DNA of 41,089 nucleotides from Bacteroidia bacterium. Lineage in GTDB: Bacteria; Bacteroidota; Bacteroidia; NS11-12g; UBA955. The notes under the pieces were generated by a model. The model saw only the letters and a list, made by a program, of their open reading frames with translations. It searched no databases and was not told where the DNA came from. Numbering within the stretch: position 1 is the stretch's first letter; every line of letters starts with the position of its first letter. This document shows positions 15,191 to 32,500 of the stretch, piece by piece. Made by a program: the position numbers and the translations under genes. The stretch spans positions 1 through 41,089 of the forward strand of contig JACMRS010000185.1 in the NCBI GenBank assembly GCA_014376345.1, given 5' to 3'.

Positions 15191-15616
15191 TTACTTAATA
15201 TAATTAGGAGATTCGCACATTTGCCAATACTCAACGATGGTTTTTAAAACATTTTTTAAACCCTCCATACTTGTTGGTTTTACAAAGAAACCTTGAATTG
15301 ATTTAGAGTATGCATCAATAACAGCTTCTTGCTCTGCGCTTGTAGTAAAAAATAAATATGGAATAGTTTTGATACGGATATCCTCATTTTCATGAATCTG
15401 ATTTCTTAGTTCCATACCATTAAGTTTAGGCATATTGATGTCTGAAAAAACGATAAAAGGCTCAGTTGTTTTTGCAGTCAGGTAAGCGAGCGCTTCTTGT
15501 CCGTCATTAAAAAAAACAATTTCATTTTTGTAATTGAGTTCTTTAAATACTTCGCTAAACATTTCCTGATCATCAGAGTCATCTTCAACAATAATAATTG
15601 CACCTTTTTTATTCAT
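15191..15616 (-). CDS. Stand-alone response-regulator receiver (CheY-like)
   Basis: IIVEDDSDD acidic pocket, phospho-acceptor VFSDINMP, FFTTS and FFVKP signature residues. No output domain. Confidence 0.85.
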   Translation of the reverse strand: MNKKGAIIIVEDDSDDQEMFSEVFKELNYKNEIVFFNDGQEALAYLTAKTTEPFIVFSDINMPKLNGMELRNQIHENEDIRIKTIPYLFFTTSAEQEAVIDAYSKSIQGFFVKPTSMEGLKNVLKTIVEYWQMCESPNYIK

Positions 15617-15724: not shown

Positions 15725-16024
15725 TTATAAAAAAGTAAGTCCGATTGTTTTATTTAATCCAAGTTCAAAAATTCTGATTAATGTAGACAATTGAATATTG
15801 CCTTTTGCATTTTCTATTTTAGAAATATAACTTTTTTTGGTGCCAGTTTTTTCTGCAAGTTGTTCCTGAATTAAATTTGCTTTTTTTCTTGCTTCTTTTA
15901 GCATTTCACTGATAATAAACATTTGGGAATTCTCTTCGTATTTATATCTCTTTTCAGTTCCTGTTTTTCCGTTTTCAACTTTAATGAGTTGATCAAATGT
16001 GTTTATGTTATCGTACTTTTTCAT
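15725..16024 (-). CDS. XRE-family helix-turn-helix transcriptional regulator (antitoxin-like architecture)
   Basis: LKEARKKANLIQEQLAEKTGTKKSYISKIENAKGNIQLSTLIRI is a canonical HTH_3 motif. It has an N-terminal ~35-aa extension, as in HigA-like Bacteroidota proteins. No partner toxin ORF is visible. Confidence 0.8.
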   Translation of the reverse strand: MKKYDNINTFDQLIKVENGKTGTEKRYKYEENSQMFIISEMLKEARKKANLIQEQLAEKTGTKKSYISKIENAKGNIQLSTLIRIFELGLNKTIGLTFL

Positions 16025-16119: not shown

Positions 16120-16521
16120 TCAAAAATACCCTCTCAGTTCCTCAACATTCAAAGGTTTGCTAAGTATGGCTTTAACAAATGGATCGGCTAATGCTTTCTC
16201 CTGATCGCCTTTATCAATGGTAGAGGAGAGTAAGAATAATGTAGAAGCACTAGTTATTTTTTCGGGAAGCTTCGCATACTCTTCTAAAAATTCAAAACCA
16301 TTCATTCCCGGCATTTGTATATCCAAAAGAATGATGTCGGGAATCAGTTTTTCGTTTTCTGCATTTGCTTTTAGGTATTCAAGGGCTTCTGAACCCGAAT
16401 TATAAGTTAAAGTTTTTGAAGCAGCCTTGTTAAGCTCCAGAATTTTTACCACAACAAAAATGTCAAGCTGATTGTCGTCAACGCACATGTAAAATGCATT
16501 CAGATAATCATGATTTTTCAT
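16120..16521 (-). CDS. Stand-alone response-regulator receiver, last gene of the phosphorelay operon
   Basis: CVDDNQLD, phospho-acceptor ILLDIQMPGMNGFE, LLSST and ILSKP. 14-nt overlap with the upstream hybrid kinase gene. Confidence 0.85.
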   Translation of the reverse strand: MKNHDYLNAFYMCVDDNQLDIFVVVKILELNKAASKTLTYNSGSEALEYLKANAENEKLIPDIILLDIQMPGMNGFEFLEEYAKLPEKITSASTLFLLSSTIDKGDQEKALADPFVKAILSKPLNVEELRGYF

Positions 16522-17599
16522 TCGGAATTGTTATTTTAAATGTAAGTCCACCTTCGATATTTGTTTCTACCGAAACAGAGCCTTTTAAAAGATCCACAGC
16601 TTCTTTAACAATATAAAGACCAATGCCGGTGCCGCTGTTGTTATTCTGAGCCTTAAAAAACATTCTGAAGAGCTTATCTTTGTCTTCCTCACGGACACCC
16701 GATCCATTGTCTTCAATCGTAAATCTGGCTTCTTTTTTATCTGTTTCAACACTGATCCTGATTCTTTTATCAGGATTGTCCTGCCTTTGAAATTTAACTG
16801 CATTAGAAAGCAGGTTCCCCAAAATAATTCTCACTCTGAAGGGTGTACTGTAAAAAGTTTCTTCAATGCGGTAATCTTTAATAATGCTTACCGAGCCAAA
16901 ATTGCTGTAATTAGATATGCTGCCGAGAATCTCGTCAACCATTTTCTCCAAATTTACTTCTGAATGCGAAGCGTCAATTTTTTTATTCTGATGGTATTCT
17001 ATAATGTTTCTTATAAAAATATCGAGCTTTTCAACACTCTGACCAATCATGCCAAAATACTCCATCAGCTTTTCAGTGTCTGCACCAAAACCTGCAATGT
17101 TAACAATGCCAAGTATCGACATCAGTGGTGCCCTCAACTCATGCGAAACACTATAAACAAAACGACTCAGCTCCTGATTGGCTTTGTCGAGTGCCGCAAT
17201 TTTTTCTGTAAGTACAGATTCTGTCATGTACTTTTGATACGCATTATCAATAGTAATTTTTAATAAGTTAACATCCCATGGTTTGTCTAAAAATTGATAA
17301 ACACCACCTTTATTGATTGCCGCAATAGCAGCTTCCATATCAGAATATCCTGTTAAAAGAATTTTGATTGCTTTAGGATATTTTGCTGTAACAATTTCGA
17401 AAAACTCCACACCTGTCATGCTTGGCATACGTTGGTCTGAAATGATAACTTGATATTCTTTGCTTTCCAGTTTTTTCAAGCCTTCAACGCCACTAATGGC
17501 AGTAGAGATGTTATACTCGCGTCTGAAAGTAGCCATGAAAGAATTAAGATTCTCCTCTTCATCGTCTACATATAATACAGTCACCTTGTTATCCTTCAT
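16508..17599 (-). CDS. Cytoplasmic hybrid response regulator / histidine kinase (REC-HisKA-HATPase_c)
   Basis: REC domain (VLYVDDEEENL, IISDQRMP, LLTGYSD, LDKPW). H-box SHELRAPL, N-box LLSNAVKF, G1 EDNGSGV, G2 GTGIGLYIV. No TM segments. Confidence 0.9.
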   Translation of the reverse strand: MKDNKVTVLYVDDEEENLNSFMATFRREYNISTAISGVEGLKKLESKEYQVIISDQRMPSMTGVEFFEIVTAKYPKAIKILLTGYSDMEAAIAAINKGGVYQFLDKPWDVNLLKITIDNAYQKYMTESVLTEKIAALDKANQELSRFVYSVSHELRAPLMSILGIVNIAGFGADTEKLMEYFGMIGQSVEKLDIFIRNIIEYHQNKKIDASHSEVNLEKMVDEILGSISNYSNFGSVSIIKDYRIEETFYSTPFRVRIILGNLLSNAVKFQRQDNPDKRIRISVETDKKEARFTIEDNGSGVREEDKDKLFRMFFKAQNNNSGTGIGLYIVKEAVDLLKGSVSVETNIEGGLTFKITIPNEKS

Positions 17600-17602
17600 G
17601 GT

Positions 17603-19762
17603 TTAAGATGGTTGATGCCGTGGCAAAGTTATAATAAATTCTGTCATTTTATCCGGTTCAGATTCAACTCTGATAGTTCCGTTGTGTGATTCAATAATCT
17701 GGTAAACAATAGAAAGACCTAAACCTGTGCCATGTCCAACATCTTTTGTAGTAAAAAATGGTTCAAAAATACGTGCTTTAACATAGTCTGGAATACCCGG
17801 GCCATTATCCTTAATGCGTATTTCTACGCCGTCTTCTAATTCATTAGTAGTTATAGTTATCGTACATTTTTTATTGTGGCATTCTTTTAATGCTTGCACT
17901 GCATTATTCAGAATATTCATAAATACCTGGTTCATTTTTCCCGGGTAACATTCTATTTTTTTATCAAGATTATAATCTTTAATAATCTCAATGTCATTTC
18001 CCAATTCACTTTTCAGGATAATTAATGTGCTGTCTATACCTTCCTGAATATCAGTAAACTTCAAATCACTTTCGTCCAGTCTGGAAAACAATCTCAGTCC
18101 TTTAACAATTTCTGCTGTTCTTGAAGCACCATGGGCAATGCCTTCAAGTAATGTATTTATTTCTGTTTTAAGAAAGTCGAGATCAATTTTAGTTTTATAT
18201 TTTTCTATTTCTTTTAAATGGCTCTCCTTGTCATCTTTATGAATAGTTTGATCATACAAATCTAACAAACCATACATATCTTCAATGTCCATTTTAAGGG
18301 GTCTTATGTTACTACTTACAAAGTTAATAGGATTGTTGATTTCATGGGCGATACCGGCAGTAAGCTGACCGAGACTTGCCATTTTTTCTGCACTTACAAG
18401 TTGTGCCTGTGCTTCTTTAAGATCTTTAATAGCTCCGCTTAAATTGGTGTTTGCTACCTGAAGTTTTTCAGTTCTCTCTTCAACTTTTTGTTCAAGCATT
18501 ACATTCTGCTCACTGATAATTTTAGCATTTTCTTTAACTGCTTCAAGTGCTTCTGCCTGAGAGGCTTCTTTGTCTCTTCTAAGCACGTTTATTTTATCTG
18601 CAAGCGCAATAGAAAGCATTACAGCTTCGAGAGCAGATCCGATCTGCATAATGTAATAAGTGAAATCATTGTATGGCAGAATGCCAAAGTCTCTGAGCAC
18701 GAAAATAAAAACACCTACTAAAAATACAACCCAGGCGAAAAGGAAAAATTTAGCCTCCCTGATCTTCTTTCTGTAAAGTATCACACTTAAAATAAGCATG
18801 TACGTAGCAGTTAGTGATACTGCAATCTGTAATATTAAATAGCTAAGTCTGTAGATGCCGGCTAAAGACAAACTTAAAGAGATTCCATACAATATAAATG
18901 CAATGAAAAATCCTTTATCAAGTCGTGGAATATTACGTGCAGTATTTAGGAACTGACGCATAAATAACACTGCTGCCGGACCAACGAGGGTGCTGCTGAT
19001 ATACACACTTTCATTAGCCATCCAGGGCCAGTTGGCAAAGAAATATTTAAATGAATAGCCTTGCAAAGTGGCTTGTGTCAGACCTACTATAAAAATATAA
19101 ATTACGTAGTATAAGTATTCTTTGTTGTCGCCTTTAACAGTGAAATAAAGTGCCAGGTTATACAGCAGCATCACCAGTATAATTCCGAAATAAATGCCTG
19201 CAAAAATATCTTTTAAAAGAAGAGATTGAAAGATGCTTTTTTCAGTTCCTGCGTAAACCGGAACCTGAAGTTGTTCATTGGTACGCACTTTCAGAAGTAT
19301 GCTTGCAGACTCACCTTGACCAATTAAAACATCAAAAATATAATGGTGGTGAGGGTAACTTCTTTTGTTGAAAACATACATGTCACCAGAGGTGTCACTT
19401 CTGATCACACTGTCACCTTTCAACTGCATAAAAATTACTTCATCTGTAGTTGCCTGAGCAAGTTCTAGAAGTACTTTATCAGCATTCGTATTGTTTGTAA
19501 TATTGAGTTTAAGCCAGTATGATGATGCTGTAATGCCAAGATTATGAACGTCAATGGGAACATAAGTAAACTTAAGAGAAAGTGCTTCCTTTACAGTAAA
19601 GTTATTCTGTGGATCTTCAAGCCAGGATATGTTTTTGCCAATCAGAAAATGTTTGTCTCCGATTATTTTAACTGTATCTTGTGCATAGGAAGGTAATTGC
19701 AATAGCAGTAATAAAAACAATACCGGCAGGCTTTTGTATTTTTTGAGTGTTTTCAATTTCAA
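17603..19762 (-). CDS. 7TMR-DISM family sensor histidine kinase (DISMED2 extracytoplasmic domain + 7 TM + HisKA + HATPase_c)
   Basis: Signal peptide, a ~150-aa extracytoplasmic domain, then about seven hydrophobic helices (res ~185-390) and a coiled coil. H-box AHEINNPINF, N-box ILNNAVQA, G1 KDNGPGI, G2 GTGLGLSIV. Apparent TTG start overlapping the upstream stop (TTGA). Confidence 0.85.
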   Translation of the reverse strand: MKLKTLKKYKSLPVLFLLLLLQLPSYAQDTVKIIGDKHFLIGKNISWLEDPQNNFTVKEALSLKFTYVPIDVHNLGITASSYWLKLNITNNTNADKVLLELAQATTDEVIFMQLKGDSVIRSDTSGDMYVFNKRSYPHHHYIFDVLIGQGESASILLKVRTNEQLQVPVYAGTEKSIFQSLLLKDIFAGIYFGIILVMLLYNLALYFTVKGDNKEYLYYVIYIFIVGLTQATLQGYSFKYFFANWPWMANESVYISSTLVGPAAVLFMRQFLNTARNIPRLDKGFFIAFILYGISLSLSLAGIYRLSYLILQIAVSLTATYMLILSVILYRKKIREAKFFLFAWVVFLVGVFIFVLRDFGILPYNDFTYYIMQIGSALEAVMLSIALADKINVLRRDKEASQAEALEAVKENAKIISEQNVMLEQKVEERTEKLQVANTNLSGAIKDLKEAQAQLVSAEKMASLGQLTAGIAHEINNPINFVSSNIRPLKMDIEDMYGLLDLYDQTIHKDDKESHLKEIEKYKTKIDLDFLKTEINTLLEGIAHGASRTAEIVKGLRLFSRLDESDLKFTDIQEGIDSTLIILKSELGNDIEIIKDYNLDKKIECYPGKMNQVFMNILNNAVQALKECHNKKCTITITTNELEDGVEIRIKDNGPGIPDYVKARIFEPFFTTKDVGHGTGLGLSIVYQIIESHNGTIRVESEPDKMTEFIITLPRHQPS

Positions 19763-20445
19763 CGGATTATCAGATCATAACTTATTTCAACTTCGCCTTT
19801 TGGCACTTTTTCTTTTCGTATATGTACAGGATTATTTCTAAGATCCATTACTGAAGCCTTTACTTCAGCGGCTGCAGTTGTTAATAAATGTGGATTCTGA
19901 CTCAAAACTCTTGCTACGTAATTTGAGTTAGGATAAATAAATGTTCCATCATTTCCAAGACTTGTTTCAACCTGAAAGCCAATCCTGGTTGCCATTCTTA
20001 AAGTGTAAGCTGCAACTATGGTAAACATAGACGTAACAGGTAACTGGTTAACAATTGACATGCCTGCAATTACCAGTAAAAATGTAATACCCATGTTAGG
20101 TGCTTCTTCTCTTGAATTCCATAAACCGCAAAGCTCACAGGTACCACCGTTGTCAGAATATTGTTTTACCATGTTAAAAATATTCTTATCAAAATGTCCT
20201 ACTGCATCTTCCACAGGCAATGGATTTATTCCATCTGCAATTTGAATACGAATACCACCTAGCAGGTGTTCGGAATTATCTGATTTTGCAGTAATGACGT
20301 AGATATTCGGATTTTTAGGCCAGGTAGGTTTGTTAGTTGAAATATTTGTCAGATTAAAGCCTTCAAGCACACGGCGGTGACCCTCGATAAATTGCTGACA
20401 ATTTTCCGGGTTGTCAATTGCTCTGAATGCTTTGAATGATATCAT
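19759..20445 (-). CDS. Orphan 228-aa protein, possibly GNAT-like acyltransferase fold
   Basis: ATG start, wedged between the E1/nitroreductase gene (5-nt gap) and the kinase gene (4-nt overlap). The central ..GGTCELCGLWNS...APNMGITFLL...M.. and later AAYTLRMATRIGF..E..LG..GTF.YP segments resemble the beta4-alpha3 and alpha4 region of GNAT or autoinducer-synthase-like folds. This is pattern recognition only. Confidence 0.35.
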   Translation of the reverse strand: MISFKAFRAIDNPENCQQFIEGHRRVLEGFNLTNISTNKPTWPKNPNIYVITAKSDNSEHLLGGIRIQIADGINPLPVEDAVGHFDKNIFNMVKQYSDNGGTCELCGLWNSREEAPNMGITFLLVIAGMSIVNQLPVTSMFTIVAAYTLRMATRIGFQVETSLGNDGTFIYPNSNYVARVLSQNPHLLTTAAAEVKASVMDLRNNPVHIRKEKVPKGEVEISYDLIIR

Positions 20446-20450
20446 CTGTA

Positions 20451-22751
20451 TTAAAGCCTGAAAAATAACTCAGTTAATGGTTTTCTAAGACTTCTTACTT
20501 CGTGTTTTTCCGCTTCAAATATTCTGAAAATAAAAACAGGTTCTCTATTTTCATCAAGAAACTTTCTATTGAATTCTGCTTGTTGGTCTTTCATTTCTTC
20601 TATATCCTCTTGAGATAATCCTTCCCCTTTACCATAATTAACTCTATGCCATATTGCAATAGGAGAAAGCATTGGTTGCATTCCCCAGTTTTTATGGTTC
20701 AATAATAGCCATAATCTTTGGATTGCCCTACCTGAATTTATATACTTAACAACAGTATCCTGACCTGTAAAGCTTAAAATGCCTAGTGCAGTGGAACTTG
20801 CTATTAATTTTTTACTTAATTTTCCAAGTCCTGCTCCTTTATTCCAGCTTCTGAGTAAGGAAATTACTGCAGGATAAGATGCCATGTGAAGTCCTGCCAC
20901 ATCAAGCGGTCCGAAACCTGCGGTGCGAATATCCAGTCCGTCGCGTTCCTTCTCTGCCTGCTCTTTCGTCCAGCGCATTTCCTTTACAAAGAAATCAGGA
21001 TGCCCTTCTTTATGCATCAGTCTGATTCTGTCAGCAAGTGCAATTGTATTGGCAATAAACATCATATCTTCTTGATTATCCACAAGAGTTATTGACAAGT
21101 CATCTGAATGCCCGATACAGTTTTTAAGGTCATTTTCAACATCAGAAGGCAGTGGTTTTTTATTGCCCTTGTTTCTGTTTGTATACCTTGCGCCAATTTC
21201 ATTTGCCAGATTAATATCGCATTCATCCATTTCAACACCACTGCGTTTTATTGAAATTGTAGCCACTAAATTCTCACTTTCACCTGCAGGAAATAAATCA
21301 ATATTAGGTTGAAACCCCATTCTTTTTGATTCTAAAGAAAATGTTTCAATGGCTGTTCCTAAAGCGATCTGGGCGATAAAATTATTGTGATCCATAAAAG
21401 AAACGGAACTCGATCTGTCGTGAAACAAATAAAAGATGCCGTTGTAAAGCGCCCATTTCCAGGGTTGTGTATTTCCTGCTGAAGGCGCAAGTAAAACTGC
21501 ATTAATCAGCGTTTCTATTTCACTTTCTGAAGCAGTCATTTCAGCAGTGTCTTTTTTAAAGTTTGTTTTCAGGAAATTGTGAATCCACTCTTTAGTAAGA
21601 GGTGTTAAAGTGTTTTGTTTTAAAACAGTTTTTTCTGAAGAAACAGGATCGCAGAAAATCTCATCCATATCAACATGAAATCTTCCTGATTTGTGAAATT
21701 CATCAAGAAGAATTTTTCTAGAAACATCAGCAGTAATGCCACCTCCGAGCGTTACGGCTGAAGCTAGTTGTGGCCAGGTAGTAATGGTTTCACCAATTTC
21801 AAGCATTGATGCTTTTGTGCGCTCAGAAACTGTATGCAGTCCTACTATTTGTAACATGTAAGGAATTTTATCCTCATTTGTTTTAAGTGATTTGAGGATG
21901 TCGATATTGATGTCTCCAACCAGTCCGTGAAGGAGTGGGCGGTCGGGTTCCAGATCGAATCTTTCAATATCTACCATTCCACGGTCGCTAGCTTCCTGCA
22001 CAACAGGGATGCCAAGTGAACGCGCCTTCAAACGTGCCAGTATTTTTATATCCAGTCCGTCAGATTCATCAATCAACAGGTCTAGTTTGCCATCACCTGT
22101 AAAAAAACTATCCATGTTTTCTTCTGTAATGCCATCATGAAAACATACCACATCGAGGTACGGATCTATTTCTGCAATTTCACGGGCTACAGAAACAGTT
22201 TTCAATAAACCAAGATTGTGAAGTGGTGTTCTGATTCTGTTGTAATTACTGAGTTCCAGTATGTCATAATCTGCAATCCTCAATTGTCCGAATCCGCGTT
22301 CCATAGCTAATGTTACTGAAACTGACTGTCCCACAGAAAGTCCGATTACACCTATTTTTTTTGTTGAAAGTGTGTTTCGTTCCGCAAGTGTTATTTTATA
22401 GTTATTGCGTGAAGTTCTGAGTTCAATAAAATCTTCTTTGTGAAGGATATGAACTAGCCTGAAACTCCAGGGATAATATACCCATGTTCCGATATGCGAG
22501 GTATCACCTCCCGAAATGTACTTAATTACTGCATCATTAAGAGATTGTGATGTGTATGTTATTTGGGCATTTCTGCATTTTATAAGTTCTGCAAGCTGTC
22601 CAATTATCTCATCGCATATTTGGATATGTGGATTTTCAGTCAGAAGTTTTTCTAGTGCTTCAGCTTGCCCGGGCTTACTTTTGTCAAAGAAATCCGGACG
22701 TGTTTTATGTTTTTCAAGGTGATTTATTTTAGCGGTTGTTTGCTCTTGCAT
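20451..22751 (-). CDS. Rv1355c-family protein: N-terminal E1/ThiF-like adenylyltransferase domain fused to Acg-type tandem nitroreductase-fold domain
   Basis: ThiF-like core (KKIGVIGLSVGQSV...LRIADYDILELSNYNRI....LG..K.....EI.EIDPYLDV...DG.T..N.D.F......DLLIDESD.LDIK...R..ARSLGIPVV...SDRG.VDIERFDLEPDRPLLHGL). A C-terminal ~370 aa carries the nitroreductase signature APSAGNTQPWKW. 766 aa in total. Confidence 0.7.
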   Translation of the reverse strand: MQEQTTAKINHLEKHKTRPDFFDKSKPGQAEALEKLLTENPHIQICDEIIGQLAELIKCRNAQITYTSQSLNDAVIKYISGGDTSHIGTWVYYPWSFRLVHILHKEDFIELRTSRNNYKITLAERNTLSTKKIGVIGLSVGQSVSVTLAMERGFGQLRIADYDILELSNYNRIRTPLHNLGLLKTVSVAREIAEIDPYLDVVCFHDGITEENMDSFFTGDGKLDLLIDESDGLDIKILARLKARSLGIPVVQEASDRGMVDIERFDLEPDRPLLHGLVGDINIDILKSLKTNEDKIPYMLQIVGLHTVSERTKASMLEIGETITTWPQLASAVTLGGGITADVSRKILLDEFHKSGRFHVDMDEIFCDPVSSEKTVLKQNTLTPLTKEWIHNFLKTNFKKDTAEMTASESEIETLINAVLLAPSAGNTQPWKWALYNGIFYLFHDRSSSVSFMDHNNFIAQIALGTAIETFSLESKRMGFQPNIDLFPAGESENLVATISIKRSGVEMDECDINLANEIGARYTNRNKGNKKPLPSDVENDLKNCIGHSDDLSITLVDNQEDMMFIANTIALADRIRLMHKEGHPDFFVKEMRWTKEQAEKERDGLDIRTAGFGPLDVAGLHMASYPAVISLLRSWNKGAGLGKLSKKLIASSTALGILSFTGQDTVVKYINSGRAIQRLWLLLNHKNWGMQPMLSPIAIWHRVNYGKGEGLSQEDIEEMKDQQAEFNRKFLDENREPVFIFRIFEAEKHEVRSLRKPLTELFFRL

Positions 22752-22776
22752 AATTTAAAAAATAAAGTACCCCGGT

Positions 22777-22784
22777 CAAATATA
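22777..22784 (-). promoter_or_regulatory. Candidate -7 box (TATATTTG) for the minus-strand operon
   Basis: TAnnTTTG match on the minus strand, 25 nt upstream of the ATG at 22751, inside the 146-bp divergent intergenic region. Confidence 0.35.
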
Positions 22785-22897
22785 AGTAGCGAAAGTCATT
22801 TTAATATAATATTTAATTTTTTTTTTCACTATTTTATCATAAAGTAACAAAATGACCTGTTTTTTACATAATCTTGCATACTGTGTAGAAATAAATT

Positions 22898-23362
22898 ATG
22901 TCTGAAGAAAGAATTAAAATTCTGTATGTGGATGATGAAATTCACAATCTGAATGCTTTTAAAGCATTATTCAGAAGAGAATATGATATTTTTACTGCCG
23001 AATCTGCGGAAGATGGCATGAAACTTCTCAAAGAGCAGCAACCTCATATAATTTTAACAGATCAGCGAATGCCTGTTTGCACGGGAATAGAGTTTCTGGA
23101 GCAGGTAATACCGCTTTATCCTGATCCTATTCGAGTATTGGTTACCGGATATTCTGATATCAATGCGGTAATTGATTCGATTAATAAGGGTCAGATATTT
23201 AAATACATTCCAAAGCCCTGGAAAGAAGAAGATCTGCGCATGCACATCAACAATGCTTACGAGGTTTTTCGTCTTCGAAAAGAAAATAAAGAACTGACAG
23301 CAAAGTTGCTAGTAGCCAACGAACAACTTGAATTTCTGCTGCGGCAGAAATTATTATCGTAA
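22898..23362 (+). CDS. Stand-alone response-regulator receiver with a C-terminal coiled-coil tail (divergent from the operon)
   Basis: ILYVDDEIHNL, ILTDQRMP, LVTGYSD and IPKPW. By eye about half its residues are identical to the REC domain of the hybrid kinase at 16508-17599. Confidence 0.9.
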   Translation: MSEERIKILYVDDEIHNLNAFKALFRREYDIFTAESAEDGMKLLKEQQPHIILTDQRMPVCTGIEFLEQVIPLYPDPIRVLVTGYSDINAVIDSINKGQIFKYIPKPWKEEDLRMHINNAYEVFRLRKENKELTAKLLVANEQLEFLLRQKLLS

Positions 23363-23418: not shown

Positions 23419-23955
23419 TTATTTCCACTCCTGACTTTTACAAAAATTAAATATCTGCAGGCTATGGTGCTTGCCATGCCAGGCATACAAACCTATAATG
23501 TGTGCCAGTGAAATATTTTTTTTCTGTTCGGGATGGTAAAAGGTTCTGCTGAAATCTTCAAGCTTCATGCTTTTTAAAAGGGTCACCCATCTGGAGTGCA
23601 AATGCTTAACTATTATTACAGAATCCTGAACAGGTGCTTCAAGTACATCAGCTGTAGTAACCCAGGCATCCTGATCATAAGGTTTGATGGTTGGATTTTC
23701 TTCGGTAAGCGCCAGCTTGAAACGGGTAAAAGCCTGCAAATGACTGTCAGCAATGTGATGCACTACCTGTTTCAATGTCCAGCCACCATCTCTGTAAGGT
23801 GTATTAAGCTGGTTATCTGTAAGTCCTTCGATAGTATTGCTCAGCAAATTAGGAAGGGTTTCTATTTCAATAATCTGTGCCGCAATAAAAATTTCTGTAA
23901 ATTCTTCCAGCGCGTTATATGACCCAATCGGGCGTATGATTTCTTCAGTTGTCAT
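23419..23955 (-). CDS. DinB/YfiT-family putative metal-dependent hydrolase or thiol transferase
   Basis: The His triad pattern of the family (VVHHIADSH, ...H.., AWHGKHH), a four-helix DinB-like length (178 aa), and W.L.Q...H motifs. Confidence 0.75.
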   Translation of the reverse strand: MTTEEIIRPIGSYNALEEFTEIFIAAQIIEIETLPNLLSNTIEGLTDNQLNTPYRDGGWTLKQVVHHIADSHLQAFTRFKLALTEENPTIKPYDQDAWVTTADVLEAPVQDSVIIVKHLHSRWVTLLKSMKLEDFSRTFYHPEQKKNISLAHIIGLYAWHGKHHSLQIFNFCKSQEWK

Positions 23956-26346: not shown

Positions 26347-27144
26347 TTATTTAACAGACTCACCTTGCTTCACTAAATTAATATCTGTTTTTTTTGTAAG
26401 TCTTTTTATAAGATAAATAATAGCTGTAATACCCGTAATAATTGCGGCTACCATGGCAGTTAATTCAACAGTTGAATCATAACCTATCACCTTCATTTTG
26501 ATAGCAATGGTTGCCCAGGCAACTACTGCCGGGAATATAGGATCTTTGTAGCTAATTCCGGTAATCAGTGCTGCAATAGTTGCCACCGTTATCATGATAA
26601 CTGTCCAAACTGTTTCGCTTATTCCTGCGCCATTCCAGCCAATTGAAACCAGCCAGGACGAAACACTTGCAATAACAGCCACCGAAATCCATCCAAAGAA
26701 AAGTGCAAATGGAATGGTCACTTTATAACCAAGTGTGTATGCAGCTTTATAAGATCTGATAAACAAAATCATACCCAGAATTAGCATTGCAAAAATAACG
26801 ACAACACTCATGCCGATCCAGTAGTTTGTGTAAACAAAAATCCAGAGACTACCGCCGATATTTGCGAGTAATAATGGACCGCTTAGGAGTTCATATTCTT
26901 CGTGTTTTTGTGAACGCGGTAAGAGTTGAGTAATGCAATAAATGATAAAAGACAAATAGATTATTCCCCATATTGCAAAGGCATAAGGAGCGGGTGTGAA
27001 GAGGTTGTCATATTTGTCTGAAATTACTTTAACGCTGTCTACTCCGGAAAATTTTGCATAAAGATAATTGAAAGCAATATTGAGAATAACAACAATAAAT
27101 GTTGCCCATCTTAAAGCTGTGTTTGATTTAGTAGGATTTTGCAT
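26347..27144 (-). CDS. Multi-pass integral membrane protein (possibly TspO/MBR-related)
   Basis: About eight hydrophobic helices, rich in Trp and Tyr. The FTPAPYAFAIWGIIYL motif is reminiscent of TspO-related proteins. The family call is tentative. Confidence 0.4.
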   Translation of the reverse strand: MQNPTKSNTALRWATFIVVILNIAFNYLYAKFSGVDSVKVISDKYDNLFTPAPYAFAIWGIIYLSFIIYCITQLLPRSQKHEEYELLSGPLLLANIGGSLWIFVYTNYWIGMSVVVIFAMLILGMILFIRSYKAAYTLGYKVTIPFALFFGWISVAVIASVSSWLVSIGWNGAGISETVWTVIMITVATIAALITGISYKDPIFPAVVAWATIAIKMKVIGYDSTVELTAMVAAIITGITAIIYLIKRLTKKTDINLVKQGESVK

Positions 27145-27263
27145 TTTAATTTAGTTTTTACAAAAATGGCTGTTTTCATGTAAATAGTTTTACAAAATTT
27201 ATTGAAAGATTTATATGGTTTTGAAGTTAAATTGCTTTATTTGTAGAACATTGAATATATAAA

Positions 27264-27638
27264 ATGCTAAAAAGATCATTTAGTTTTAATGGCCGTGCTA
27301 GGAAGAAAGAGTATTTTCTATCAGTAGTAATTTTTTTAGTTTTAGTTTATGGTGGATCTTATTTTATAGATGTCATTACAAATAGTATCACAGGAAAAAA
27401 TTTTAGTGAAAAAAGTAGTGCTATGGAATGGTTGGAAGTATTAATTTTAATTATAGCATACTGGTTTATGCTTTCGCAGAGTACCAGAAGATGTCATGAT
27501 ATTGGGAGAAGTGGTTGGTGGTGTCTTTTACCATTCTACTGGCTTGTTTTAATACGACATCCCAGCAGTCCTGAAGGCGAAGATTACCAAAGTATTAAAA
27601 GGCGTAATGCAATGACTGATATTATTGATAGTGAATAG
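27264..27638 (+). CDS. DUF805-domain inner-membrane protein
   Basis: F.GRARKKEYF N-terminal motif, two or three TM helices, and the RRCHDIGRSGWW signature. Confidence 0.8.
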   Translation: MLKRSFSFNGRARKKEYFLSVVIFLVLVYGGSYFIDVITNSITGKNFSEKSSAMEWLEVLILIIAYWFMLSQSTRRCHDIGRSGWWCLLPFYWLVLIRHPSSPEGEDYQSIKRRNAMTDIIDSE

Positions 27639-27694
27639 TAGGGTTAATATATTTAATCCAAAAAATATTTCAGATTAAGCATCGTTAACAATTA

Positions 27695-28159
27695 ATGAAG
27701 CTGAAATCAAACATCAACCAGAAATATATGAAATTGGTTAAATGGTTTATAATTTCAATATTAGTAATGTTGGTTTATTGCAGTTATGCCGTTTGTTTTG
27801 GGAGCAGTAGACTTTCGGTTTTATTAAATCTCTACTCAACCAATTTTCCAGATGGTTTTAATGAAATTTCATTTGAAAGCCGCAGACTTTTTAAGGATCA
27901 TGTTTATTTTACCTGCACTTTAACTAAAGATAAGTGGGAAGATTGGATTAAGAAGGAAACTTTTGAAGTGATATTAAATCCTGTTCTGAATGGTCAAAAA
28001 GGCTATAGTCGTTATAATTCTATTCCATTAACTATGAAAAATTTTGAAATTCCTTATTCAGTTCAAATCCGCAAATCTAATGGTGATTGCATTTTATTTT
28101 TAATAAAAAATACGGATAGTGAGGAGATTAATTTACTGGTAAGTTGTGATTATAATTGA
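27695..28159 (+). CDS. Hypothetical protein with an N-terminal TM or signal anchor
   Basis: ORF with ATG start in a visibly A+T-rich block. No recognisable motif. An alternative start lies at the internal MKLVKWF. Confidence 0.45.
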   Translation: MKLKSNINQKYMKLVKWFIISILVMLVYCSYAVCFGSSRLSVLLNLYSTNFPDGFNEISFESRRLFKDHVYFTCTLTKDKWEDWIKKETFEVILNPVLNGQKGYSRYNSIPLTMKNFEIPYSVQIRKSNGDCILFLIKNTDSEEINLLVSCDYN

Positions 28160-28175
28160 GTTATAAATAATTATT

Positions 28176-28637
28176 ATGAAATTTAAAATGTTGTTATTTT
28201 CCATTCTCACTATCATTGGAATACTCTTTATTTCTGCCGCATTTTATAATCTTTATTACATATTAAATAGGGATTATATTGAATTGTCTTTATACAAAGT
28301 GAAACACTATGAAATGTCAGCAGGGAATTTATTAACGATAATATTTTACACCTTTTACTTTTGCAAATTCAGTGCTTATTTTTTATGTTTTATTATTTTA
28401 AAAGAATATTTTTATTTTTCAAATAAGTTGTACATGCTTGTTTTAATTGTTAGTGCTTTTTTAATTGAATGGATACTCAATCAAAAAGACATAATTATTA
28501 TAGAAAAATTTATTTACCAGAATATTGATACTAATATTTATTGTGAATTTTGTTTCTTTTTGTGTTTTTTAGTTTCAGGACTCTTTTTTTTGATTAAAGG
28601 AGCAAAACGAATAAGTGCTATTAGTCCATCTGTTTGA
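28176..28637 (+). CDS. Hypothetical multi-pass membrane protein
   Basis: Four or five hydrophobic segments rich in Phe, Ile, Leu and Tyr. No recognisable motif. Confidence 0.45.
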   Translation: MKFKMLLFSILTIIGILFISAAFYNLYYILNRDYIELSLYKVKHYEMSAGNLLTIIFYTFYFCKFSAYFLCFIILKEYFYFSNKLYMLVLIVSAFLIEWILNQKDIIIIEKFIYQNIDTNIYCEFCFFLCFLVSGLFFLIKGAKRISAISPSV

Positions 28638-28705
28638 TTCAATTTAGCATTACAGCCTAAACACGATTGAAATAATTTGAAGTTAAAAGCGTTTATATTT
28701 AAATT

Positions 28706-29329
28706 ATGCAATTCAGATATTTATATACAATTCTATTGTTGATTTTTATTTCTAAAAATCAGCATTCATTTGCACAAAAGATCAGAATGAACAGTTCAAT
28801 TGATTCAGTAATTACTGTTTCTGCTACTGAAAAAAGTATAGTTTATTCTTTCAAAAATGCCGATTCACTTAGTATTTGTAGAGAAAATTATACTTTAGTG
28901 TTTCAGGAAGATGAGTGTTTCAATTGTAAGCACATTAATATTAAGAAATTTTATTTTCAAGATTCAAGAGTTGTTAATCTTGGATATGCTGCGGAAAGAA
29001 TTATCTGGAATTATAGTTGGTGGAAAAATGGAAAAATTAAAACCGCTAATGAAGTTTTGAATGAATGTAATAATTTAATTATGATTCGCACTGAGTTCGA
29101 TTCAGTTGGAGTTGAAGTAAACTGCAGTAAATACAAATTTATTAAAGACACTCAGTTAATTGATTATCCACCGGGTTACGGTGTTACCGGATGGTTTAAA
29201 ATTTCTTTAAATGAGATCAACGATAATTTATTTTATTGTTATTCATTTGATGATCAATACATTATTTCTCGTAAATGCAGAATTAAAGACATTCCAAACA
29301 TACATAAAAACTTCGCTTTATCTGCTTAG
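28706..29329 (+). CDS. Hypothetical secreted protein
   Basis: Signal peptide (LLLIFISKNQHSFAQ). No recognisable catalytic motif. Confidence 0.5.
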   Translation: MQFRYLYTILLLIFISKNQHSFAQKIRMNSSIDSVITVSATEKSIVYSFKNADSLSICRENYTLVFQEDECFNCKHINIKKFYFQDSRVVNLGYAAERIIWNYSWWKNGKIKTANEVLNECNNLIMIRTEFDSVGVEVNCSKYKFIKDTQLIDYPPGYGVTGWFKISLNEINDNLFYCYSFDDQYIISRKCRIKDIPNIHKNFALSA

Positions 29330-29483
29330 CAGAAACAATACGACAGCTCAATGATCACCTTGTTTTTGCCTCAATGCACCAAATATTTTGCTTTAAAGAA
29401 ACATTCTTAATAAGTTCTTCGTTTCAAGTTCAATAAAAGTTTCGTCAAAATATTATTTTATTAAAAAGCACATCCAACAAAAA

Positions 29484-29512
29484 AGCCCCTGCAAATATTA
29501 TTTACAGGGGCT
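29484..29512. terminator. Bidirectional Rho-independent terminator between convergent genes
   Basis: AGCCCCTG / CAGGGGCT 8-bp stem. On the minus strand it is followed by TTTTTTG, which serves the giant T9SS cargo gene. On the plus strand it is followed by TTGAT. Confidence 0.8.
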
Positions 29513-29530: not shown

Positions 29531-32500
29531 TTATTTAATTATCGCAAATTTCTCTGTTGTACTGCCACCGTTATACTGCATTGTTACAGTATAAATACCT
29601 TCGGGAAGTGCAATCAGATTAAGTGAATTTGTATTGAGTCCATCAGTAGCGCTGACCGTTTGGGTGTAAACATTTTTACCAACCATGTCAGTAACAGTTA
29701 CTTTTACAGCCTGCTCGTCATGTGAATTAAATTCAAGATTGAATAAACCTGTATTTGGATTTGGATAAATTTTAGCCTGTTCAATAGCTGCAGAACGTTT
29801 GTAAACCACAGCAATTGTTGAATAAGTTATGGTACCGTTTAAATCAATTTGTTTCAACCTGTAAGTTATCGGTCCTGCTGGAAGTTCATTCACATCATCA
29901 ATAAAATTATAACTTACGGGAGCACTTGTATTTCCATTTGATCTTACAAAACCCACTTTTTCAAAACCTTTGCTACCACTGTATAAACGTTCAACTTCAA
30001 ATCCTGCATTGTCAGTTTCTGAAGCTAGATTCCATTTTACTTTTGTTGTGCGGTTTTCAAAAAGATCAGCCGTAAAACTCAACATATGAACAGGTAATGC
30101 TGCTCCACTTGTCTGGAATTGATATTTACAAGAACTGAATCCGCAAGTTGGACTGTTATCATCTACTATCATGTAATATTCTGTAGCAGGAGCAAGTATC
30201 CATGTCAGAGTACCTGAACTTGAAATTGTCTGACAGGTACCCATTTGCGAACCTAAACCAGGACATACACCGGTGTTAAATATACTCACTCTTAAACCAT
30301 TCGAACATTTGCTGATATTTGAAAAGGCTGCATTAAACGGCTGGTAGTAAATTGAATTGTTTGTTCTAAATTTATACATGTTAGAATTACATGCTGCCTT
30401 GCCACAAGTTGCAGGTTCGCCTATTTCTGCTGTTGCTGCACACAAGCTGTCCAAACCGGAATTTAATTTTGCTGCTTTATATAATGAATCTGCAGAGCTA
30501 CAAGCATTGTTAACCATCGGGAATGAGTAACTTACTTTGGTAGAATCTATGCTCACACAATTACCATTTGTAATTGCCCATCTGAATGTATAATTGCCAT
30601 TAGTCAATCCTGAGATGCCTGTATTGCGTGTTGCAGGTGCAGCAATAGTAGCAGTATTAGGACCTGAAAGTTGTGTCCACATACCTGTTCCTACAGAATC
30701 TACGCTACCATTTAAAGTTGTAAAATTCTGACAGATTACCTGTCTTGCGCCTCCAATTGCAATTGCCGGTATTTTCACAATTTTTACTGTGTCGAAAGCA
30801 TCACTGGTAGGGCAACTTCCGCTTTTAATGCGCCATCTGTATATATAGGTGCCTGTATCAATTCCCAAAACTACAGGAGTAGGAGAGGTTGAATCTGTAA
30901 ATGAAGTACTGAATGGTCCTTTAATCTGCCTCCATGTTCCTGCACCTGATGAAGGATTGTTGCCATTTAAATTTACAGGTTGTCCGATACAGGTTTTAAT
31001 ATTAGAAGGACTTGCTGTTGCAACTGTAGGAAGGCTTGATAAAACATATTTTACAGTATCTCTTGAAACACATAAACCATTAGTGATAGTCCATATATAA
31101 TTATAAGTACCTGAAGTCGTTAATGTCAAACCTGAAGTGTTTGATGCCGGTGTTGCAATAGTAGATGACGGCACAACATTTTGTTTAGACCAAGCACCAG
31201 TTCCAATAATGGCACTGTTACCATTAAGAGCAGTAGTGGTTCTTACACATATTGCTGAATCTGAACCTGCATTAGAAACAGTTGGATTTAGAGAAGGTAC
31301 AAAAATGGCAATGGTATCAATGCTCGGTGAGCAAACAACGCCACCACTTCTGATGTCCCAAACATATTTGTAGGTTCCTGTTGAAGTCATACCCGTAATT
31401 TTTGTCGCAGGATTTGCCGGTTCCTCGATAACAGCTGATAGCGGACCGGAAACTTGTCTCCAGTTTCCAACACCAATTAAAGCAATGTTTGCACGCATTT
31501 TAACATAGCCAGGACAGATTGTTGTATCCGCGCCGGCATTAGCAGTTGTTGGTGCTGCAAAATTTTCAATTCTAACCTCATCAGCTCTCGAACAGAAACC
31601 ATTGGTAACAGTCCAGGTGAAAAGATAAAGTCCGGTAGTTACACCAGTAACTGTTGAGTTGAATAATGTTGGAGTGGTAATAGTTCCTGCTGGACCTGCA
31701 GATTTTGTCCATACCGCAGTATTTGGTGACACATTATTACCAGCCAGAGTAAATGAAGAAGCATTACATAAAGCCTGATCTGTACCTGCATTAGGCACTT
31801 TAGTGGTATCAGAAATTATCACTTGCATTGTATCAGTAGTTTGCGGACATCCCCATCTGGCAGGGACAGTAAATGCAAACTTATAAGGAGATCCTGCAGG
31901 CGAAATGCCTGTTACTATTGCGCTGTTGTTTGAGGTAGTTGTTACAGTGCCTGATCCGCCGGCAGCTTTGGTCCATGTGCCAATACTTCCTGAAGGTCCT
32001 ATTAAACTTGTACTTGTCAGATTGCAATATCCTGCATCAGCACCGGCTGCGGCACTTATCACAACTGTATCACTTACAAAAGCACTCTGTGCAGGGCACA
32101 AACCACCATTTGAATAGGCTGTATATTTAAAATTGTAAATGCCAGTTATTAAATTTGAAACCAATGTGGTAGCAGAATCAGGATCAGCAATATTGGGTAC
32201 ATTCGGAGCAGCACCATTCAGTGACCAGATTGAGACTCCGTTTTTAATTCTGTTGGCTGTTAGTGTTAGTGAAGTACCTCCGCAAAGTTTTTGTGAACCA
32301 CCAATTACAGGAATTATTGGTTTATTATCAATATTAATTTCAACTGTATCAGTTGATCCAGAACAAGCATTGTTTGTAACAGTCCATGCAAAACGATAGC
32401 CTCCTGAAATTAAACCTGTAAGTCTTGCTGTAGGAGAATGAATATCAGTAATTGACCAGCCTGCAGGGCCTGAGGCTAATGTCCAGGTTCCGATTCCTAT

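Follow-up and report, generated by a model that had tools for sequence, protein, structure and literature searches.

A conserved Bacteroidota cassette joins a predicted oxazolone-forming enzyme pair to a 7TMR-DISM kinase relay

Why would two enzymes of small-molecule metabolism share an operon with an extracytoplasmic sensor whose relay carries no visible output domain? The question is raised by a 41,089-nucleotide (nt) stretch of DNA from a Bacteroidia bacterium (contig JACMRS010000185.1 of the metagenome-assembled genome GCA_014376345.1; the whole stretch is here called the window), in which five minus-strand genes are packed head to tail and a sixth, encoding a stand-alone receiver (REC) protein, diverges from them. 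We found that this cassette is a real, self-contained six-gene unit of Bacteroidota, that its enzyme pair resembles the actinobacterial proteins TrzA and TrzS, which make oxazolone lipids, and that the sensor half of its membrane kinase tracks, in sequence distance, one domain of the synthetase rather than its own transmitter. We propose, at a probability of roughly 45% for the whole chain, that the cassette is an autoinducer-like make-and-sense module. An idea of this kind had been offered in the original prediction, which was made from the sequence alone; synteny and covariation now back it, and as a complete chain it is still unproven.

The original prediction had also described the layout, including the junctions and the divergent REC gene across a spacer of 146 base pairs (bp) rich in A+T, and this description matches the list of open reading frames (ORFs) of the window exactly. 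Likewise, the domains assigned to all the proteins were confirmed by Pfam and NCBIfam. The genes, named by the length of their products in amino acids (aa), and the control region are as follows.

20451..22751, minus strand: gene of the 766-aa putative synthetase, first of the operon, with a 5-nt gap to the 228-aa gene.
19759..20445, minus strand: gene of the 228-aa putative acyltransferase, with a 4-nt overlap with the 719-aa gene.
17603..19762, minus strand: gene of the 719-aa 7TMR-DISM kinase, with a TTG start, then a signal-peptide-like N-terminus, and a 3-nt gap to the 363-aa gene.
16508..17599, minus strand: gene of the 363-aa REC-HisKA-HATPase kinase, with a 14-nt overlap with the 133-aa gene.
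16120..16521, minus strand: gene of the 133-aa stand-alone REC protein, last of the operon; REC is the only domain given by Pfam and NCBIfam.
22898..23362, plus strand: gene of the 154-aa stand-alone REC protein, divergent, across the 146-bp spacer; here too Pfam and NCBIfam give REC alone.
22752..22897, unstranded: A+T-rich divergent control region of 146 bp, from the sequence and a motif scan.

Genomes of GTDB representatives, one per species, were scanned for the conserved motifs of TrzS, ORFs were called at each locus and classed against the proteins of the window and the family profile, and synteny was counted over the best 80 of at least 586 confirmed TrzS-motif relatives. All 80 loci carry a gene of the Bacteroidota type, and the labels among them include Pedobacter, Mucilaginibacter, Parapedobacter, Daejeonella, Chitinophagaceae, Flavipsychrobacter, Cryomorphaceae, Flavobacteriales and Cytophaga. 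The acyltransferase gene (A) adjoins the synthetase gene (S) on the same strand in 76 of the 77 evaluable loci, in the order S>A in 55 and A>S in 21, where '>' denotes gene order. The 7TMR-DISM kinase gene lies directly downstream of the enzyme pair in every locus with enough sequence (68/68), which bears out the earlier suggestion that enzyme and kinase genes are tightly coupled. Next to it stands the REC-kinase gene in 54 of 66 loci, being displaced, not absent, in several others, and this gene is followed by a REC gene of the 133-aa type in 43 of 54. A REC gene of the 154-aa type is present in 68 of 76 loci, either divergent upstream or convergent downstream. Median gaps, which are approximate because longest-ORF starts were used, are 5.5 nt between the enzyme pair and the kinase, 9 nt between the kinase and the REC-kinase, and -4 nt between the REC-kinase and the REC gene. 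Look-ups of individual loci agree with these counts, and the flanking genes vary between genomes. The gene set returns, with junctions about as tight, in dozens of species-level genomes, which takes the arrangement far outside what chance would give. The functional unity of the cassette is nearly certain.

As had been noted for the window, none of the REC proteins carries an output domain, and this holds across about 70 genomes. All-against-all clustering of neighbouring genes revealed no seventh conserved gene, be it for an Hpt protein, a transporter or a DNA-binding regulator, that would supply one; the best candidate occurs at 12 of the 80 loci and reflects genus-level synteny. Since the absence of an output domain is common to related loci, it is a conserved property and not an accident of the window contig.

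A reading of one locus (L093) as an acyltransferase gene followed by a kinase gene, lacking the synthetase, was rejected, since BLAST shows the downstream ORF to be the synthetase, in the order A>S. Bacteroidota-type cassettes were also seen in metagenome-assembled genomes labelled Janthinobacterium lividum, Bifidobacterium sp., Bordetella parapertussis and Azovibrio restrictus (L027, L050, L060, L063 and L077); these are probably binning or labelling errors rather than cases of horizontal transfer.

The enzyme pair and its predicted product

The 766-aa protein had been assigned to the Rv1355c family, then thought to have no established function. This view is outdated: Rv1355c and Rv1356c are now known as TrzS and TrzA, which make N-acyl tryptazolones (PMC12856293). 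TrzA (Rv1356c) uses acyl-coenzyme A (acyl-CoA) to N-acylate tryptophan, and TrzS (Rv1355c) cyclises the product with adenosine triphosphate (ATP) and then, in an O2-dependent desaturation, converts it to the N-acyl tryptazolone, as established in vitro; the pathway is found in Mycobacterium tuberculosis, M. smegmatis and Rhodococcus jostii (Kleetz et al., JBC Dec 2025, PMC12856293). Such chemistry was already on record for two homologous systems of tyrazolone and phenazolone synthesis, OxzAB of Pseudoalteromonas rubra (bioRxiv 10.1101/2020.06.11.147165) and TyzACB of M. tuberculosis (PMC10404671), both of which make tyrazolones. The lipid class itself came to light in 2020-2021, and the route by which M. 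tuberculosis makes it was elucidated in 2023-2025.

Against the NCBIfam model NF005901 ('Rv1355c family') the 766-aa protein scores 721 bits, with a cut-off of 476, over aa 13-761, and along about 96% of its length it shares 30-32% identity with Rv1355c-family proteins encoded on Mycolicibacterium and Rhodococcus plasmids. It is composed of an N-terminal domain of about 110 aa, a ThiF-like ATP-dependent cyclase, a linker, and a flavin-dependent oxidase (FDO) of the Acg/nitroreductase type, the last of which also matches the NCBIfam model 'Acg family FMN-binding oxidoreductase' (FMN, flavin mononucleotide) with 112 bits over aa 415-698. The two catalytic domains are located as follows.

21657..22421, minus strand: ThiF-like adenylating/cyclase domain, aa 111-365 (Pfam ThiF, E 8e-15).
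20454..21521, minus strand: flavin-dependent oxidase domain of the nitroreductase superfamily, aa 411-766 (Pfam Nitroreductase).

Every residue that is invariant between Bacteroidota and three actinobacterial TrzS homologues, in an alignment that includes M. haemophilum, is kept in the 766-aa protein. The adenylation-site features of the ThiF domain, namely the Gly-rich loop, the DxD motif and the SNxNR motif, are all present, and G134/G137/G141, D161/D163, N171/R172 and D231 are invariant in 79 orthologues as well as in the three actinobacterial homologues, with D256 invariant in the 79 orthologues. By motif, D231 presumably occupies the position of MoeB D130 and ThiF D127. In the FDO domain the motif APSxGNxQPW and residues R522, R526 and R577 are all invariant or nearly so among the 79 orthologues. 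Mutants of TrzS have been published at D217, R540 and Q651 (PMC12856293), and these positions were mapped by a constant offset, which is +10 for the FDO residues. D217 of M. smegmatis TrzS would correspond to D231 or D234; Asp stands at both positions in the 766-aa protein, and 71 of the 79 orthologues share D234. R577, the inferred equivalent of R540, is kept in 78 of 79, and Q692, the inferred equivalent of Q651, is Q or H (39/40), with H in M. haemophilum TrzS. The near-invariant Cys of the DECD motif of the family is replaced by Ser in the 766-aa protein.

The 228-aa protein, whose gene adjoins that of the synthetase across 5 nt, had been regarded as an orphan. It matches no Pfam or NCBIfam model, including FeeM and Autoind_synth, and a sequence search of PDB chains with the protein or its family profile gave nothing useful or significant. 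Its family, which has no Pfam domain and bears only 'hypothetical protein' as a name, comprises 306 matches in a 90%-identity collection and 647 representative clusters at E <= 1e-3 in a 50%-identity library; a weak Pfam FeeM match is seen in 6 of 39 members. An AlphaFold2 model built on these 39 members has a predicted local distance difference test (pLDDT) score of 90.6 and a predicted template-modelling (pTM) score of 0.88. The best fold matches of the model in the PDB are all FeeM chains (2g0b: E 1e-7, TM 0.79 on the target), and the next are the acyl-homoserine lactone (AHL) synthases BjaI and EsaI; FeeM and AHL synthases are also the structural neighbours of TyzA (Eltis group, PMC10404671). 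With these enzymes the protein shares an invariant Glu on a central strand, and it differs from them in having no significant sequence match and in conserved motifs that are its family's own, GG[IV]RxQ, ExxGLWN and F/YxYP. H23, G64, E104, W109, Y171 and P172 are invariant in 73 orthologues, and the C-termini of the family are variable.

A reference family for TrzA was seeded with the 260-aa gene adjoining the Rv1355c-family gene of Rhodococcus qingshengii; its relatives all come from mycolic-acid actinobacteria, and it is anchored in M. haemophilum by the gene order EAL / 242 aa / 715-aa ThiF, which is the layout of Rv1357c-Rv1356c-Rv1355c. By hhalign the two families appear to be remotely related (probability 84%, E 7e-6, 181 columns, 14% identity), and their invariant motifs align, namely GG[IV]RxQ, the Glu and Trp of ExxxxW, and YP. 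One metagenome protein (Saprospiraceae) joins a ThiF domain to a 228-aa-type domain. Although sequence by itself does not decide the matter, fold, synteny and profile in combination convincingly take the 228-aa protein out of the orphan class and place it, as a remote TrzA-type member, in the N-acyl amino acid synthase lineage.

Since the 766-aa protein passes the Rv1355c-family cut-off and the 228-aa protein is a probable remote TrzA homologue, the pair most likely makes an N-acyl-amino-acid oxazolone, a prediction in which we have high confidence. The 'adenylating, FMN-redox and acyltransferase-like flavour' ascribed earlier to the enzymes would then resolve into N-acylation, ATP-dependent cyclisation and O2-dependent desaturation, and the pathway onto which they map is one of specialised metabolites and not a known housekeeping pathway. 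This would extend the oxazolone pathway to Bacteroidota and would give a predicted function to an unannotated family of at least 647 clusters at 50% identity.

The likeness to TrzA/TrzS lies in the order of N-terminal domain, ThiF cyclase and flavin-dependent oxidase, in the active-site residues kept in the 766-aa protein, and in the adjacent, co-oriented N-acyltransferase gene, whose product has the FeeM/AHL-synthase fold and is probably a remote homologue of TrzA. However, the synthetases share only about 30% identity and the acyltransferases about 14%, and the cassette usually has the synthetase first. OxzAB and TyzACB share with it N-acylation, ATP-dependent cyclisation and flavin-dependent desaturation, ThiF and nitroreductase domains that are fused or adjacent, and a suggested role in signalling. 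In contrast, TrzS belongs to a ThiF/FDO subcluster separate from TyzB and OxzB (PMC12856293), and oxzAB is a two-gene operon with no linked sensor.

The actinobacterial trzAS-type loci contain no histidine kinases. On a Rhodococcus plasmid such a locus (L009 3803-4954) stands beside a GGDEF gene, and in M. haemophilum (L011 1-4619) beside EAL and LuxR-type regulator genes. Oxazolone genes thus keep company with signalling genes in a second phylum too, with the difference that the actinobacterial loci sit beside genes of cyclic diguanylate (c-di-GMP) metabolism, whereas the Bacteroidota pair is hard-wired to a 7TMR-DISM relay.

Several variants of the enzymes were observed. One locus (L002 8828-9928) has a ThiF-only synthetase of 366 aa that lacks the oxidase domain in an otherwise complete cassette; another (L092 6409-8307) has a ThiF-acyltransferase fusion, also lacking the oxidase domain, that stands alone; and a Streptomyces plasmid (L010 7917-9715) carries a ThiF-only gene whose product is 44% identical to the ThiF half of the window protein, followed by an unrelated GNAT gene. 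From the oxidase-less variants one would expect oxazolones that are saturated and more reactive, or else simple N-acyl amino acids. Domains of the 228-aa type fused to TIR, leucine-rich repeats and HATPase_c (P0412, P0399 and P0492) are single metagenome sequences each and may be artefacts of gene calling or assembly. As relatives of the 228-aa protein, both the 304-aa ORF after the Rv1355c-family gene of Mycolicibacterium TY66 and the Streptomyces 'GNAT family protein' after a ThiF-only gene were rejected (hhalign E about 0.2 each).

The kinase relay and the covariation of its domains

The 719-aa kinase is built of a signal peptide, a DISMED2 domain (aa 42-170), a 7TM domain (aa 185-390), a coiled coil, and an AtoS/ZraS-type dimerisation and histidine phosphotransfer (DHp) domain with its catalytic domain. 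In Pfam it matches PF07696 DISMED2 (E 5.6e-25), PF07695 7TM (E 6.5e-53, positions 2-205 of 205), HisKA and HATPase_c (E 5.9e-27). The DISMED2 and 7TM input architecture, with its full-length 7TM match, is that of the Pseudomonas receptors RetS, LadS and NicD, 7TMR-DISM proteins that are hybrid kinases or diguanylate cyclases and respond to carbohydrate, calcium or amino-acid cues; we know of none among these three that is co-transcribed with a lipid-biosynthetic pair. The 363-aa kinase is soluble and consists of an NtrC/RpfG-type REC domain, HisKA and HATPase_c. Its N-terminus and the 154-aa REC protein are 45% identical over 144 residues (E 1e-44), which confirms that the two are paralogues, as had been judged by eye; the match spans the linker helix and ends at the start of the kinase H-box.

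The catalytic histidines, the ATP-lid residues and the receiver Asp, Thr and Lys are conserved in essentially all orthologues. More specifically, H473, N620, D652 and G678 of the 719-aa kinase are invariant in 68 orthologues, and D55, H153, N266 and D297 of the 363-aa kinase are conserved in 60-61 of 61. All 48 orthologues of the 133-aa REC protein have D15 and K122, and 47 of them have D67; the 154-aa REC protein has D12, D13, D55, T83 and K106 invariant in 59 orthologues and a conserved C-terminal helix.

By best NCBIfam matches the core of the 719-aa kinase is AtoS/ZraS-like, and the 154-aa REC and the REC of the 363-aa kinase are NtrC/AtoC/ZraR-like. The top match of both these NtrC-type receivers (146-157 bits) is NF053512, the NosR family of REC-containing c-di-GMP phosphodiesterases, a family that we take to be RpfG-like. 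The core of the 363-aa kinase resembles the hybrid kinases ArcB, TorS, BarA and LuxQ, and the best matches of the 133-aa REC are the receivers of the hybrid kinases ArcB, BarA, TorS and LuxN; together the two proteins look like a putative split hybrid kinase. None of the LuxN, LuxQ, LuxM and Cqs models of NCBIfam reaches its cut-off on the cassette proteins, the matches being confined to generic kinase and REC cores.

Conservation is uneven across the cassette. Mean pairwise identity is 65% for the ThiF domain, the most conserved part of the synthetase, 59% for the 154-aa REC (52% in its tail), the most conserved protein of the cassette, and 54-57% for the kinase cores; it is 43% for the acyltransferase, 40% for 7TM, 34% for FDO and 27% for DISMED2, the least conserved domain. 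The domains expected to set chemical specificity (FDO, acyltransferase, DISMED2 and 7TM) are therefore the least conserved, a pattern as co-diversification of a signal and its sensor would look like.

Covariation was analysed with pairwise distance matrices per domain in 43-63 orthologous cassettes, and with partial Mantel tests that correct for every other domain. Two blocks emerge. The first comprises the acyltransferase, FDO, ThiF, DISMED2 and 7TM; the second, with r 0.72-0.93 within it, contains the 133-aa REC, the 154-aa REC, the 363-aa kinase in both its halves and, from the 719-aa kinase, the cytoplasmic half. FDO correlates with 7TM at r 0.71-0.75 and with DISMED2 at r 0.65-0.71, more strongly than with the ThiF domain to which it is fused (r 0.54-0.58), and the sensor domains of the 719-aa kinase correlate with their own cytoplasmic half at only r 0.28-0.33. 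The 719-aa kinase is an evolutionary chimera, whose sensor half tracks FDO and not its own transmitter. In the partial tests r is 0.44 for FDO and 7TM and 0.36 for FDO and DISMED2 (p 0.002), and the negative controls, which were the synthetase N-terminal domain against 7TM, the 133-aa REC against 7TM, and the cytoplasmic half of the 719-aa kinase against FDO, are near zero.

Within the second block the partial r is 0.59 between the 154-aa REC and the cytoplasmic half of the 719-aa kinase, 0.25 between that half and the REC of the 363-aa kinase, and 0.39 between the core of the 363-aa kinase and the 133-aa REC (p 0.002 for each). As these values support the pairings, and as the NCBIfam types pair in the same way, a specific wiring can be predicted for this unusual relay of two kinases and two stand-alone receivers: the 719-aa kinase probably acts on the 154-aa REC and on the REC of the 363-aa kinase, and the 363-aa kinase on the 133-aa REC. 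The gene of the 154-aa REC stands at the far end from the 3' half of the 719-aa gene, so that the covariation in this block is not just a matter of physical proximity.

The N-terminal domain of about 110 aa of the synthetase behaves differently from the rest of that protein, as it correlates with the cytoplasmic half of the 719-aa kinase at r 0.56 (0.83 in 17 A>S loci) and with the 154-aa REC at 0.51, compared with 0.45 for its own ThiF and 0.44 for its own FDO. This could reflect contact with relay proteins, or linkage to the adjacent gene of the 154-aa REC.

Two further treatments of the distances were put aside. Binning by transmitter distance, which gives r 0.96 for FDO and 7TM among close transmitters, was rejected as evidence, being mostly phylogeny, because ThiF (0.83) and the acyltransferase (0.76) correlate there too; and partitions into four clusters were unstable.

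Proposed function and rival explanations

Under the make-and-sense proposal, the 228-aa acyltransferase would N-acylate an amino acid from acyl-CoA or from acyl carried on acyl carrier protein (acyl-ACP), as its fold, remote homology and synteny suggest. The ThiF domain of the 766-aa protein would then adenylate the carboxylate and cyclise it to the oxazolone, and the FMN oxidase domain would desaturate the C-alpha/C-beta bond, a step that is argued for by equivalog-level homology to an enzyme characterised in vitro and by the conserved residues. The lipophilic, hydrolysis-prone product, or an N-acyl (dehydro)amino acid form of it, may enter the membrane or the medium, and the product or its hydrolysed form may be sensed by the 7TM domain, the DISMED2 domain or both. 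Family type and covariation point to phosphorylation by the 719-aa kinase of the 154-aa REC and of the REC of the 363-aa kinase; the latter kinase, acting as a split hybrid kinase, would pass phosphate to the 133-aa REC. The output might come from binding of the phosphorylated single-domain receivers to other proteins, or from a response regulator or Hpt protein encoded elsewhere in the genome.

Quorum-sensing pairs with a synthase gene beside that of a polytopic membrane kinase include LuxM/LuxN, CqsA/CqsS, LqsA/LqsR/LqsS and RpfF/RpfC/RpfG. The cassette has in common with these systems a predicted small-lipid synthase beside a multi-pass kinase and a relay through receivers with no DNA-binding outputs, whereas its synthases and sensor domains are not homologous to theirs and it has two kinases in series and two stand-alone receivers. 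By this comparison it is an analogue of these systems in logic and not a member of their family.

The authors of the TrzAS study raise a signalling role for oxazolones and call their physiological role 'a major unresolved question' (PMC12856293). We found no paper that joins oxazolones with 7TMR-DISM proteins or that describes a system of this composition, most subscription journals lying outside the search, in line with the original prediction, which knew of no characterised system of the kind. Within the same search no report of oxazolones or N-acyl tyrosines from Bacteroidota was found, and the papers on the compounds mention no Bacteroidota homologues or kinases; N-acyl tyrosines are stated to be known from three phyla other than Bacteroidota. 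The biosynthetic pathway and the sensory domains are already known, and it is the union of oxazolone enzymes with a kinase relay that is apparently undescribed. The cassette represents the first candidate sensing circuit, with a receptor and a relay, for oxazolone lipids. Because the cassette occurs in cultured, non-pathogenic bacteria (Pedobacter, Mucilaginibacter, Parapedobacter, Daejeonella and Cryomorpha), the signalling hypothesis can be tested directly outside slow-growing pathogens.

We also considered a wider form of the proposal, namely a phylum-wide system of cell-cell (or self-) signalling in Bacteroidota, in which an N-acyl oxazolone, or the N-acyl dehydro-amino acid formed by its hydrolysis, would be the autoinducer, the 7TMR-DISM kinase its receptor, and the two would co-diversify by lineage. 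If so, it would be a native lipid quorum-sensing chemistry in a phylum that has no established one, and oxazolone lipids would gain their first receptor and their first physiological role. We regard this extension as speculative and on balance doubtful.

Several observations weigh against the make-and-sense module. Actinobacterial tryptazolones mostly stay inside cells (PMC12856293), and bacteria exposed to oxazolones gave no phenotype (De Rond et al., bioRxiv 10.1101/2020.06.11.147165). The homology between the 228-aa protein and TrzA is remote (14% identity, probability 84%), with the Pfam FeeM match missing from the window protein and weak in the 6 of 39 relatives that have it. The synteny counts rest on the 80 best of at least 586 genomic matches, and there are exceptions: at one locus (L003) a homologue of the acyltransferase stands beside a REC-DHp fragment only, and the ThiF-acyltransferase fusion of L092 has no kinase. 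As for covariation, fast-evolving domains carry more phylogenetic signal than slow ones, and the domain most strongly correlated with 7TM depends on gene order. In S>A loci it is the adjacent acyltransferase (partial r 0.39 vs 0.22 for FDO), and in A>S loci the adjacent FDO (partial r 0.53 vs about 0 for the acyltransferase). As the strongest partial r thus comes from the domain encoded beside the kinase, shared recombination history may explain part of the covariation. In the S>A loci FDO keeps a significant partial r with both sensor domains, 0.22 and 0.21, when the acyltransferase is controlled for.

The alternative that survives best is sensor-controlled production, in which the kinase would read an external or envelope cue (polysaccharide, surface or stress) and the product would be a stress lipid, a membrane component or an antimicrobial; we think it possible, if rather unlikely. 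DISMED2 domains are usually regarded as carbohydrate-binding, which also counts against our proposal, since this fits an external cue equally well, and DISMED2 is the least conserved domain, at 27% identity, as it should be if the ligands come from the environment and vary. In proteobacteria oxazolone production is induced by antibiotics (bioRxiv 10.1101/2020.06.11.147165), tyz genes are linked to oxidative-stress resistance (PMC12856293, PMC10404671), N-acyl tyrosine derivatives of Stieleria are antimicrobial (PMC12856293), and tryptazolones are mainly cell-associated, all of which would suit this explanation. It does not, however, predict a sensor that covaries with the specificity domain of an enzyme rather than with its own transmitter. 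Moreover, a transcriptional output through which the relay could act on the cassette genes is neither encoded in the cassette nor conserved nearby, and the enzyme genes share an operon with the sensor rather than sit under its control.

Control could also be post-translational, with the 154-aa receiver, the 133-aa receiver or both binding the enzymes, for instance at the N-terminal domain of about 110 aa of the synthetase, which would make the enzymes themselves the output of the relay. This would explain why an output domain is absent in about 70 genomes, and it would suit both the covariation of the N-terminal domain with the transmitter block, above that with its own ThiF or FDO, and the locus L003, in which the acyltransferase homologue stays beside the REC-DHp fragment in the absence of kinases and synthetase. 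Yet the N-terminal domain is conserved also in actinobacterial TrzS, which has no such relay, and its covariation may merely reflect its position beside the divergent gene of the 154-aa REC. We consider this explanation improbable.

A different chemistry is harder still to sustain. The enzymes might act on the C-terminus of a peptide or protein, in the manner of ribosomally synthesised and post-translationally modified peptides (MccB/PaaA-like) or of E1-like conjugation, or in sulfur transfer; ThiF-family enzymes do such reactions elsewhere (PMC12596934), identity to the characterised TrzS is only about 30%, and the acyltransferase assignment comes from remote homology. However, junctions of 5, -4, 3 and -14 nt and a spacer of 146 bp leave no room for a gene of a precursor peptide or ubiquitin-like protein, no seventh conserved gene accompanies the cassette, and the family-specific NCBIfam cut-off is passed. 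In addition, the Cys position of the DECD motif is Ser in the 766-aa protein, and the partner has the fold of small-molecule N-acyl synthases and, unlike E1 substrates, belongs to a family with variable C-termini. We judge such a chemistry very improbable. That enzyme and kinase genes are neighbours by descent alone, with no functional link, is hardly credible, as the kinase adjoins in all 68 evaluable loci, labelled Sphingobacteriia, Chitinophagia, Flavobacteriia and Cytophagia, the flanks vary, both internal gene orders keep the kinase beside the enzyme pair, and the junctions are tight or overlapping.

The control region and the surroundings of the cassette

The minus strand of the divergent spacer contains a -7 box of the Bacteroidota type, TATATTTG (22784..22777), from which it is 26 nt downstream to the first ATG of the operon. 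This box is the sole TAnnTTTG match in the spacer and, as a match to the consensus, a putative promoter only. Within the operon TAnnTTTG boxes occur at a frequency near the background rate in the motif scan. A sigma-70 promoter scan of 15-24 kb gave 36 matches vs 31 in shuffled sequence, Bacteroidota promoters being different from the sigma-70 consensus, and an intrinsic-terminator scan of the same interval gave 5 vs 5; both scans are uninformative on internal transcripts. An Rfam scan of the window returned no matches.

The flanks of the cassette in the window are ordinary chromosomal genes. Directly downstream on the operon strand, after a gap of 95 nt, is the gene of a 99-aa XRE/HTH_3 protein (15725-16024, minus strand), the only DNA-binding protein near the cassette in the window, and downstream of it, after a gap of 108 nt, that of a further stand-alone REC protein of 141 aa (15191-15616, minus strand); neither is kept beside the cassette in the 80 related loci. 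On the other side, a gene at 23419-23955 (minus strand) adjoins that of the 154-aa REC and encodes a DinB-fold protein that matches the YfiT-family bacillithiol transferase equivalog with 215 bits (cut-off 160). Farther along, positions 27000-29500 have a G+C content of 0.25-0.30, compared with about 0.36 elsewhere, and contain a DUF805 gene and three to four small ORFs with no Pfam match; this stretch may be a foreign islet. Finally, a gene at 29531-34807 (minus strand) encodes a large secreted or surface protein of 1758 aa with PKD-like repeats and a type IX secretion C-terminal sorting domain.

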